Source: a virus. Taken from it: a stretch of 17,319 nucleotides of DNA. The position numbers and the translations under genes were made by a program. Location of the stretch: UHGV virus genome UHGV-1706157; one strand, written 5' to 3'. The notes under the pieces are model-generated. The model saw nothing but the letters and a program-made list of their open reading frames with translations, was not told where the DNA came from and made no database searches. Positions 11,546 through 13,584 of this stretch are shown in pieces (within the stretch, counting starts at the first letter, position 1; each line of letters opens with the position of its first letter).

Positions 11546-11575
11546 ATATTACACTAATAAATTTATTAGAGCAAT
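11546..11575 (-). promoter_or_regulatory. sigma70-type promoter overlapped by a bipartite C1-repressor operator (P1 ban-operon type)
   Basis: Minus strand reads ATTGCTCTAATAAATTT (11575-11559), a 17/17 match to the recalled C1 operator consensus. A second overlapping copy in opposite orientation (11548-11564) matches about 15/17. -35 TTGCTC, 17-nt spacer, -10 TAATAT, all on the minus strand. The operator overlaps the stop codon of the methyltransferase gene. Confidence 0.55.
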
Positions 11576-13584
11576 ATACCCAAAACGTCATGAGCTACAC
11601 CTCGAGTGTCCCCCTTACAAGACACAGAACGTCTGGCAAAAAGATGTTCCACTCTGAAGCCACTGTCATGATAAAGCTCTCTGATGTTTGGCGCGCCACT
11701 GTTAGTAATGAGAACCTTTGCACCTCGACGATGAGCATCCGTCAACAGAGACACCAGGCGTTTTTGCTCTTCAAACTTAAAGTCATGACCGGAATAGTTC
11801 GTGAATCCCTCTGTATTTGGAAGCGGTTCATACGGCGGATCGCAAAAGATGACATCTCCTTCTCCGGCAGCTTCAATCACCGCTGCAAAATCACCGCATA
11901 CAAACTCAGACCGCCCTTCCGCACCGAGGAAGGCTTCCATCTCCTGTAATGGGAAATACGGAGTTTTATACTTCCCATAACCGACATTGAACTCACCGGC
12001 CTGGTTGTAACGCGTCAATCCGTTAAAACAATGTCGGTTCAGGAACAAAAACGCCGCTGCGCGATGTAAATCATCATAGACTTGTTTGTTAAACGCATTC
12101 CGTACTGCCAGGAATCCCTCCTGGGTGTTGTAGTCCTGGAAGAAACGATGTGCCAGAGTGATAAGTGAATGCGCCTCGCGTTGCAGAGTCTTGTAAAAGT
12201 TAATCAGGTCAGCATTCACATCATTTAGCAGATTTTCCTGGTATCCGGCATTCATGAAGACAGCTCCACCACCGACGAAAGGTTCAATCAGGCGCTTCCC
12301 TTCTGGCAAATAGCGAAAGATTTGTTCCAGAACACCAAATTTTCCACCAGCCCATTTGAATATGGACCGTTCGAATTCTGCCGCTGGTTTAACTTTTCGC
12401 TCTTTTGTTTCACGCCCTTCATTCTGCCGACATGCAGCCTTGGTTATCCGCTCGCCAATCCAGCGCATTACTGGTATCGCCATACTATTGCCGATCGCTT
12501 TGTAACGCGGTCCGTCAGCTGCAAGCATTGCGGCCTCTTCTTCGTTCAAATCAGGAGAGTTTTTGCGAAGGTATGCCAGTTCATCTGAAGAAACTTTTTT
12601 ACGCTTTTCCGTAGGGATCAATGTATGTCCATCAGGAAAACCTTGCAGCCTTTCACATTCGACAGGGGTAAGACGGCGCATTCTACCGTCGCCGAGCAAT
12701 ACAATTGGTGCTTCATGGTTACATGTCAAAGTTGGTGCCGAATTATCGGTTTTTATCTCAGCCCCTCCTTGCCCATGTGCCATGGCAACTATGTTTGTAT
12801 CATCGCAAGATCTGATAGCGATGTCTGAAGTATATCTGGTAGTTTCCTTCCCCTCGCCTCTGCTCGGCGCAATATTCCGGCGCACGCCTTCGAACTCAAA
12901 AAGTACCGTTGCGGGATCGAGGTCTGTTCGAGCACTTGCGACAACAAACACGCGTCGGCGTCGTTGTGCCACTCCGAAGTATTGGGCATCAAGGATTCTC
13001 CAGGCCACCTTTCGCTGCGGTCCATAAATACAACCACACTGCGGCCACTTTGGAACATGGCAACCGGTTTTGCCATCCCACCGCCAGAACGCGTTGCTTT
13101 TTCCTGATTCAGGTCGATCACCTGGTTCAAATGGCACATCTTCTCCAGCCAATCCAGCAAGGAAACATCCGAAGGCGTTATCTGCCGATGACAAGACTCC
13201 TGGGACATTTTCCCAGACGATAACGGCTGGTTTGAGAAATGACTCAGCCCGTTTGTCGTCAATTGCATTTGCAAGCTCCACATACTTTAAAGTTAGCGCG
13301 CCACGCTCATCATCAAGCCCACCACGTAATCCCGCGATACTGAATGCCTGACAAGGTGTTCCCCCGACGAGCACATCAGGGGATTCGATTTCCCCAGCCA
13401 GGACTTTTTTGGCAAGTTTTGTCATGTCGCCAAGGTTGGCGACATGGGGCCAGCGGTGCGCAAGAACGGCAGATGGAAAAGACTCGATTTCAGCAAACCA
13501 CGCAGGACGCATACCCAACGGTTCCCAGGCAATACTCGCGGCTTCAATTCCACTGCAAACAGATCCATAGCACAGCTCTTTCAC
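11566..13584 (-). CDS. dmt: bifunctional DNA methyltransferase: N-terminal C5-cytosine MTase fused to C-terminal Dam-like N6-adenine MTase
   Basis: 672-aa ORF. N-terminal half has C5-MTase motifs ([12 protein letters not shown] motif IV, ENVPG motif [10 protein letters not shown] motif X). C-terminal half is colinear with E. coli Dam as recalled (FKWAGGK motif I ... FCDPPYEP motif IV). GTG start with GGAGAGG SD, overlapping the stop of the upstream RdgC homolog. Confidence 0.85.

Follow-up and report, generated by a model that had tools for sequence, protein, structure and literature searches.

The 17,319-nucleotide virus genome sequence UHGV-1706157 (referred to here as the window) carries, at positions 11566 to 13584 on the minus strand, an open reading frame (ORF) of 672 amino acids with a GTG start codon that fuses a C5-cytosine methyltransferase to a Dam-like N6-adenine methyltransferase. 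The gene is dmt, in the P7-type allele of the bifunctional DNA methyltransferase of the P1 phage family (Punavirus). The orphan fusion of a C5 and a Dam enzyme is therefore a rediscovery of an already known gene and is ordinary in that form. What is new here is that, between dmt alleles of the P1 family, the target-recognition block of the C5 half has been cleanly exchanged. We consider it likely that Dmt is an orphan enzyme of the lytic phase, the Dam half methylating pac and other GATC sites and the C5 half pre-protecting phage DNA from Type II restriction.

The identity of the gene follows from its sequence and its surroundings. The window belongs to a P1-family phage-plasmid. It is the reverse complement of approximately 62.7 to 79.8 kb of bacteriophage P1, with 98.6% identity across 92% of its length, and it is 99.5% identical to several "Punavirus P1" records. 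Among the matches listed, 3 phage records and 17 plasmid records share 100% nucleotide identity with dmt. The gene is colinear with the P7 gene named dam at 95.8% nucleotide identity, and it is ∼97% identical to P1 dmt outside the swapped block. It shares with P1-family dmt not only high identity but also a location between hrdC and the Oban/ban operon, membership in a C1-controlled operon, and a C5 domain that precedes the Dam domain. The GenBank record of P1 describes dmt as a "bifunctional DNA methyltransferase" that acts on N6 of adenine in GATC and "perhaps" on C5 of cytosine, and the P7 record uses near-identical wording for the same gene. A reading of the window made from the sequence alone (the sequence-only reading) had recommended comparing the order of the two domains with that of P1-family enzymes. 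When this comparison was made, the order, C5 at the N terminus and Dam at the C terminus, was found to be common to P1, P7, SJ46, and RCS47, and a domain order unlike that of P1 was rejected. As the order is that of the P1 family, the window protein is the P1-family enzyme itself and not a separate protein to be set beside it. Matches to dmt are found in 498 PLSDB plasmids and in 493 of 5,426 complete Escherichia coli genomes (∼9%), where the gene is nearly always plasmid-borne.

The C5 half spans amino acids 1 to ∼390 (12415 to 13584, minus strand). It matches the Pfam C-5 cytosine methylase family PF00145 in three stretches (126 bits) and the NCBIfam model TIGR00675 (dcm) at 116 bits against a cutoff of 100.65. 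Alignments and a motif census placed the C5 motifs in canonical order on the minus strand: motif I (amino acids 6 to 16, 13537 to 13569), motif IV, GGTPCQAFS (74 to 82, 13339 to 13365; also defined by the junction sequences discussed below), with the codon of the catalytic Cys78 at 13351 to 13353, motif VI, ENV, in the context WENVPG (125 to 127, 13204 to 13212), motif VIII, QRRRR, of the form QxRxR (207 to 211, 12952 to 12966), motif IX (303 to 318, 12631 to 12678), and motif X, which includes AIGNS (363 to 372, 12469 to 12498). The catalytic motifs are essentially invariant across 120 database cluster representatives, including stand-alone C5 proteins that lack a Dam domain. Motif I is a family-specific variant, C-S-G-I-E in place of the canonical FxGxG, and this variant is retained in 105 of the 107 representatives that contain the motif. 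The sequence-only reading had made its proposal depend on the N-terminal catalytic residues surviving a careful alignment, and they do. Its description of a single ORF with a complete C5 enzyme in front of a Dam-like one is likewise borne out by Pfam, NCBIfam, and the motifs of both halves.

Structure prediction points in the same direction for the catalytic domain. An AlphaFold model of amino acids 1 to 400, built on a 70-sequence alignment, is confident in the catalytic core. Its best Foldseek matches in the PDB are all C5 methyltransferases, namely, M.HhaI, DNMT3A/B, and M.HaeIII (probability of 1.0) as well as M.MpeI. The recognition block (amino acids 232 to 290) has predicted local distance difference test (pLDDT) scores below 50, so the two-domain fold of C5 enzymes is seen only for the catalytic domain. 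A separate feature of the model is an insertion of ∼21 residues between motifs VI and VIII (amino acids 150 to 180, ∼13045 to 13137, minus strand), which some members of the family lack and which is confidently predicted to form additional beta-strands.

In comparisons of the window allele with the P7, P1, and SJ46 alleles, the ratio of nonsynonymous to synonymous substitution rates (dN/dS) was 0.11 to 0.16 for the C5 core and 0.03 to 0.14 for the Dam half. The C5 core is thus under purifying selection about as strong as that on the Dam half, whose function is established. This suggests that the C5 half is probably an active enzyme.

In C5 methyltransferases, the target-recognition domain (TRD) is located between motifs VIII and IX. 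Protein alignments and blastn breakpoints place the variable block of dmt exactly in this position (12679 to 12862, minus strand; nucleotides 723 to 906 of the gene). The corresponding segment of P1, nucleotides 723 to 1152, is 430 nucleotides long and unrelated in sequence, while the DNA on both flanks is ∼97% identical. The window block encodes 62 amino acids with one Thr-Leu (T-L) core, and the P1 reference block encodes 144 amino acids with two or three such cores; SJ46 carries a third, longer block type. Among the 498 dmt-bearing plasmids, 184 have the window type and 257 have the P1 reference type. The clean exchange of the block between flanks of ∼97% identity, with the swapped forms at intermediate frequencies, is an arms-race signature. 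Because the alleles of the P1 family differ in their recognition blocks, they probably differ in cytosine specificity as well.

The C5 half belongs to a large family. At least 8,000 candidate relatives were found at E values of ≤1e−10, and many of these are stand-alone proteins. Among the relatives, the interval separating motif VIII from motif IX is 88 to 344 amino acids long. Compared side by side, these intervals are strings of recurring units. Using 24 seeds defined by hand, we divided 78 distinct intervals into 1 to 8 cassettes each. Cassette number correlated with interval length (r = 0.93) at ∼30 amino acids per cassette, and the order of cassettes was largely preserved. The seeds were chosen by eye from the 120 best matches to a query carrying cassette A, which inflates the frequency of that cassette. 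The module census and motif test assign to the window allele only cassette A (amino acids 267 to 295, 12700 to 12786, minus strand), with a single T-L core at Thr285-Leu286. The P1 reference carries the set M-G-X (2 or 3 cassettes per protein by our count), SJ46 carries the four cassettes N2-A-R-Q, and prophage relatives have up to eight.

A Thr-Leu core is a hallmark of C5 recognition domains, as in Thr250-Leu251 of M.HhaI and in the Bacillus-phage enzymes. Cores of the type P/H-T-L-x-A occur in 16 of the 24 cassettes, compared with ∼1 expected from shuffling; since the pattern was written after the data had been inspected, this test is supportive but not independent. At least 31 distinct T-L-centered units can be recognized, and these follow a loose common template of strand, Gly-loop, core, Gly-loop, and strand. 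AlphaFold modeling of a five-cassette relative (42 sequences) gave a good catalytic core, but its recognition regions, like that of the window protein, had pLDDT scores of 25 to 50, which allows no structural statement about the cassettes. An eight-cassette array searched with phmmer against all PDB sequences gave no match at an E value of ≤10, so specificity cannot be inferred from solved enzymes. We hypothesize that each cassette would set its own specificity, and we predict from the arrangement of units that members of the enterobacterial cassette family have multiple specificities. The window allele, with one cassette and one T-L core, lacks the two or more tandem units between motifs VIII and IX expected of a multispecific (multi-TRD) enzyme and would therefore be at most monospecific.

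We put forward only tentatively a broader proposal, namely, that a large group of cytosine methyltransferases from enterobacterial phages and prophages forms an undescribed family that includes the C5 half of Dmt, with recognition regions built combinatorially from ∼30-amino-acid cassettes (at least 24 types, 1 to 8 per protein), each with its own T-L core. This family would be the Gram-negative counterpart of the multispecific enzymes of Bacillus phages, with more units. P1-like plasmids would carry at least three of the cassette sets (A, M-G-X, and N2-A-R-Q) and would differ accordingly in their 5-methylcytosine (m5C) patterns and in the range of restriction systems they escape, while an intein, described below, would be spreading independently of the sets. 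As judgments go, this one could fall either way, with the balance slightly against it.

The genomic setting of the relatives was examined for two multi-cassette proteins. The genes of both are orphans of the nin region in lambdoid prophages, with the replication genes on one side and those for RusA, Q, and lysis on the other. No partner nuclease was found within 8 kb of the stand-alone prophage relatives, and the nuclease-type Pfam matches near them are phage housekeeping functions only (RecA_dep_nuc, RusA, GpA terminase nuclease, and an HNH protein beside terminase). In six representatives (P0049, P0092, P0099, P0103, P0105, and P0109), the C5 core is fused to the phage "Dam" domain PF05869 and not to the D12 class found in Dmt. 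This indicates that fusions of C5 and N6-adenine methyltransferases arose independently at least twice.

The Dam half of Dmt (amino acids 405 to 669, 11578 to 12372, minus strand) is a D12-class N6-adenine methyltransferase. It matches PF02086 over amino acids 411 to 646 (193 bits) and TIGR00571 (dam) at 251 bits against a cutoff of 114.85, and it aligns end to end with residues 4 to 266 of E. coli Dam (PDB 2G1P and 4GBE; E = 7.5e−57). In addition to this full-length similarity, it has the Dam motif order X-I-IV, with the FxGxG motif as FVGGG at 12265 to 12279 and DPPY at 11830 to 11841 (both minus strand). The equivalents of E. coli Dam residues K9, N120, L122, R124, N132, and Y138 and of DPPY are retained. 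The GATC-contacting residues among these are K410, N521, L523, R525, and Y539 in Dmt, while P134 is replaced by Gly535. The score against the E. coli Dam equivalog model NF008152 is 245 bits, below the cutoff of 441, which makes the Dam half a family member (a paralogue) and not an orthologue of the host enzyme.

The sequence-only reading had offered two roles for the Dam half, packaging and control of the nearby origin, and these fared differently. The packaging role agrees with a review citing Sternberg and Coulby (1990), according to which the Dam activity of P1 acts on GATC sites and packaging requires that the pac site be methylated. For this reason, dmt is essential in dam- hosts. The five clustered GATC sites that had drawn attention to the origin are there, at 17110 to 17164, 3.5 kb from the dmt start; they are the GATC cluster of the plasmid origin oriR, annotated in P1 as "Dam methylation site 1-5". 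GATC is not enriched across the window as a whole (73 sites versus 70 expected). A role for Dmt at oriR in the prophage was judged unlikely given the C1 operator upstream of its operon. As oriR functions in the repressed prophage, the enzyme that methylates it in the lysogen is likely host Dam and not Dmt.

dmt is the third gene of its operon, after an operator, uhr, and hrdC. A pattern search for the C1 repressor operator consensus found four matches in the window, compared with 0.07 expected. One of these, with one mismatch to the consensus, lies at 14835 to 14851 (minus strand) and corresponds to the operator annotated in P1 as Odmt/Op68 (Odmt/Pdmt). Two others form the bivalent operator Oban/Op72 at 11548 to 11575, also annotated in P1 and P7, which overlaps the dmt stop codon and controls the downstream ban operon. 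The first gene, uhr (14479 to 14835, minus strand, from the ORF list; 285 bp in the P1 annotation), has no Pfam match. The second, hrdC (13581 to 14486, minus strand), lies directly upstream of dmt, is so annotated in P1, and matches PF04381 (329 bits). The GTG start of dmt overlaps the TGA stop of this RdgC-family gene (GTGA) and is preceded by the Shine-Dalgarno sequence GGAGAGG, an arrangement that is typical of translational coupling and would tie dmt to hrdC. Because the operon is under C1 control, dmt should be silent in the lysogen and its product should be a lytic-phase enzyme. Separately, positions 12578 to 12596 (minus strand) are identical to LPdam2, a predicted internal late promoter annotated in P7 and not in P1. 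It lies within dmt, upstream of the Dam half, and if it is real, a separate late product containing the Dam domain could result.

The earlier statement that no endonuclease gene adjoins dmt also stands. The neighbors encode the RdgC-family protein, Uhr, tRNAs, a lipoprotein, an SPFH protein, and a DnaB-like helicase, and no restriction nuclease and no PADLOC defense model was matched among the flanking ORFs in Pfam and PADLOC scans. PF04381 is titled "Putative exonuclease, RdgC", but the protein functions in recombination and not in restriction. The adjacent cognate endonuclease that characterizes a Type II restriction-modification system is thus absent, and the best PADLOC models for Dmt itself are those for "orphan methyltransferase".

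One further observation concerns motif IV. The sequenced P1 reference (c1-100 mod749::IS5) has Trp in place of a family-invariant Gly at codon 74 (L001:13687-13689, minus strand), giving VWGTPCQ. This G74W substitution is private to the P1 reference; none of the 120 database representatives has it, nor does any of the other five alleles. Located beside the catalytic Pro-Cys, it may have inactivated the C5 activity in this laboratory strain. Its position next to the catalytic cysteine could explain why an m5C activity of P1 has gone unnoticed.

For the lytic-phase role that we favor, the following course of events is proposed. Infection or induction would lift C1 repression, and Dmt would be made and act on replicating phage DNA. 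The Dam half would keep pac and other GATC sites fully methylated through rapid lytic replication, while the single recognition cassette of the C5 half would direct cytosine methylation to one short sequence. Packaged DNA would thereby be pre-protected from Type II restriction enzymes of the next host. Protection against cytosine-specific restriction by the C5 half, which the sequence-only reading had also raised, is plausible and fits the purifying selection, the swapped recognition block, and the lytic-operon context of the relatives. Several points weigh on the other side. Motif I of Dmt departs from the canonical FxGxG. The recognition block has no confident AlphaFold structure, and at 89 amino acids, the variable interval of the window allele lies at the minimum of its family. 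No report of m5C made by Dmt or of its target sequence was found in the searchable literature, and searches on Dmt with m5C, intein, multispecific, and phage-plasmid returned only the GATC/pac role. The timing of dmt expression is inferred from operators and annotation. Finally, a simple benefit is put in doubt by the possibility that m5C makes the phage vulnerable to McrBC-type enzymes.

Some of these points would be accommodated if the C5 half were catalytically silent, a DNA-binding or processivity module or a tolerated relic attached to the Dam half, such that Dmt is functionally only a Dam. GATC/pac methylation would then be its sole documented function for good reason, in keeping with databases that name the protein "Dam family", and neither a noncanonical motif I nor a recognition block that lacks a confident model would be surprising; the sequenced laboratory P1 with G74W is, after all, still a viable phage. 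We nonetheless regard a silent C5 half as unlikely. The catalytic residues PCQ, ENV, QxRxR, and GNS are all retained, and the dN/dS of the C5 core is as low as that of the Dam half. Stand-alone prophage proteins without a Dam domain carry the same C5 core, which an accessory module would not explain, and an inert module would need no polymorphic, cleanly swapped recognition block. That same block, together with the 1 to 8 shuffled cassettes of the relatives, bears on a second possibility, to which we give no greater weight: an active C5 half whose main role is something other than anti-restriction, be it an epigenetic or developmental mark (for example, in the timing of late transcription, in replication, or in recombination involving the RdgC homologue) or a means of countering defenses other than restriction. 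For a regulatory mark, a constant target would be expected, whereas closely related P1-like elements carry unrelated blocks at comparable frequencies, and the shuffling of cassettes fits better with diversifying selection by varied restriction systems. What speaks for such a mark is that dmt is cotranscribed with the recombination-associated hrdC upstream of the ban helicase operon, that the fused Dam half has a nondefensive role at pac, and that, according to a review, a regulatory role in the viral cycle is often suggested for orphan methyltransferases of phages.

Far less probable than either, and barely credible in our view, is that Dmt provides the modification activity of a restriction-modification system, with the cognate endonuclease encoded elsewhere on the element. 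P1 does carry the EcoP1I restriction system elsewhere in its genome, but EcoP1I is of Type III and has a Mod subunit of its own that methylates the adenine of AGACC. The 17-kb window contains no restriction nuclease, the prophage relatives have no partner nuclease within the 8 kb searched, and the PADLOC assignment of Dmt is that of an orphan enzyme. An orphan Dmt of the lytic phase, with a Dam half serving pac and a C5 half serving anti-restriction, therefore remains our preferred explanation.

Some sister alleles of dmt are interrupted at the active site. In RCS47 (L002:532-1554) and in the laboratory P1 isolate OP279344 (L003:532-1554), 341 amino acids are inserted between Pro77 and the catalytic Cys78. 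The insertion begins with Cys and ends with His-Asn, directly before the catalytic Cys; a TxxH block is present in it, as are two LAGLIDADG motifs and a C-terminal block of typical form, and it matches Pfam Hint_2 and LAGLIDADG_3. By these sequence hallmarks, it is an intein with a LAGLIDADG homing-endonuclease domain. It is found in 133 PLSDB plasmids, about a quarter of the P1-like plasmids, combined with both types of recognition block. A description of a dmt intein was not found in the searchable literature. The window allele is intein-free, with an uninterrupted GGTP/CQAF and an empty site at 13351 to 13356 (minus strand) in the DNA sequence GGAACACCT/TGTCAGG, the slash marking the junction. 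In a comparison of the surrounding segment of the window (13324 to 13383, minus strand) with L001-L005, flanking single-nucleotide polymorphisms (SNPs) (GGAACACC... and ...GGGATTACGT) are shared with the intein-bearing alleles and are absent from the other intein-less alleles. At the junction, a single synonymous base, CCT in the window and CCA in the intein-bearing alleles, sets them apart. The shared flanking SNPs could reflect a co-conversion tract, a precise loss of the intein, or a homing-resistant site.

At 8962 to 10152 of the window (minus strand), a gene for a 275-amino-acid SPFH/Band-7 protein and two small ORFs stand in place of tciA-tciB-tciC (TerB-like) of P1, which is an accessory-gene replacement between members of the P1 family. 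Rfam identified three tRNAs on the minus strand: Met(CAT), annotated in P1 as tRNA-Ile2, at 8859 to 8934, Thr(TGT) at 10739 to 10814, and Asn(GTT) at 10817 to 10892. At the gathering threshold, Rfam returned these three tRNAs only and did not recover the "dicF-like region" that the P1 annotation places between them and dmt.

Beyond the known gene, the parts of interest are the cassette family, the C5 activity, the G74W substitution of P1, and the intein. The C5 half of a well-known methylase is conserved, under selection, and present in ∼9% of complete E. coli genomes, and it has apparently never been characterized. If it is true that the recognition blocks set m5C specificity, they would partly decide which hosts each P1-like phage-plasmid, often a carrier of resistance genes, can enter. 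The cassette family, if it is confirmed, would offer a naturally occurring set of small cytosine-recognition modules that can be recombined.

The closest known counterparts of the window protein are P1 Dmt (AAQ14041, 754 amino acids) and P7 "Dam" (AAQ07538, 672 amino acids), which agree with it in gene, position, operon, operators, and domain order. The P1 reference, unlike the window, has a different block between C5 motifs VIII and IX and the private G74W in motif IV. E. coli Dam (PDB 2G1P, 4GBE, and 4RTJ) differs from the Dam half of Dmt in that the latter is fused behind a C5 domain and has Gly for P134 and Phe for Y119. The stand-alone prophage C5 methyltransferases of Enterobacter, Klebsiella, and E. 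coli (for example, P0052 and P0053) are 49 to 55% identical to Dmt in BLASTP local alignments and share with the window allele the catalytic motifs, cassette A, and the absence of an endonuclease partner, but they have no Dam domain, carry five to eight cassettes, and reside in integrated prophages and not in a phage-plasmid. In the multispecific enzymes described from Bacillus phages, tandem short recognition units, each with a T-L/V/I core, lie between motifs VIII and IX. M.SPRI, M.Phi3TI, M.Rho11sI, and M.H2I share with the enterobacterial Dmt C5 family a phage-borne orphan C5 enzyme with this tandem-unit layout, while no detectable sequence relationship between the cassettes of the two groups has been established. 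The window allele differs further from the Bacillus-phage enzymes in having one cassette only.

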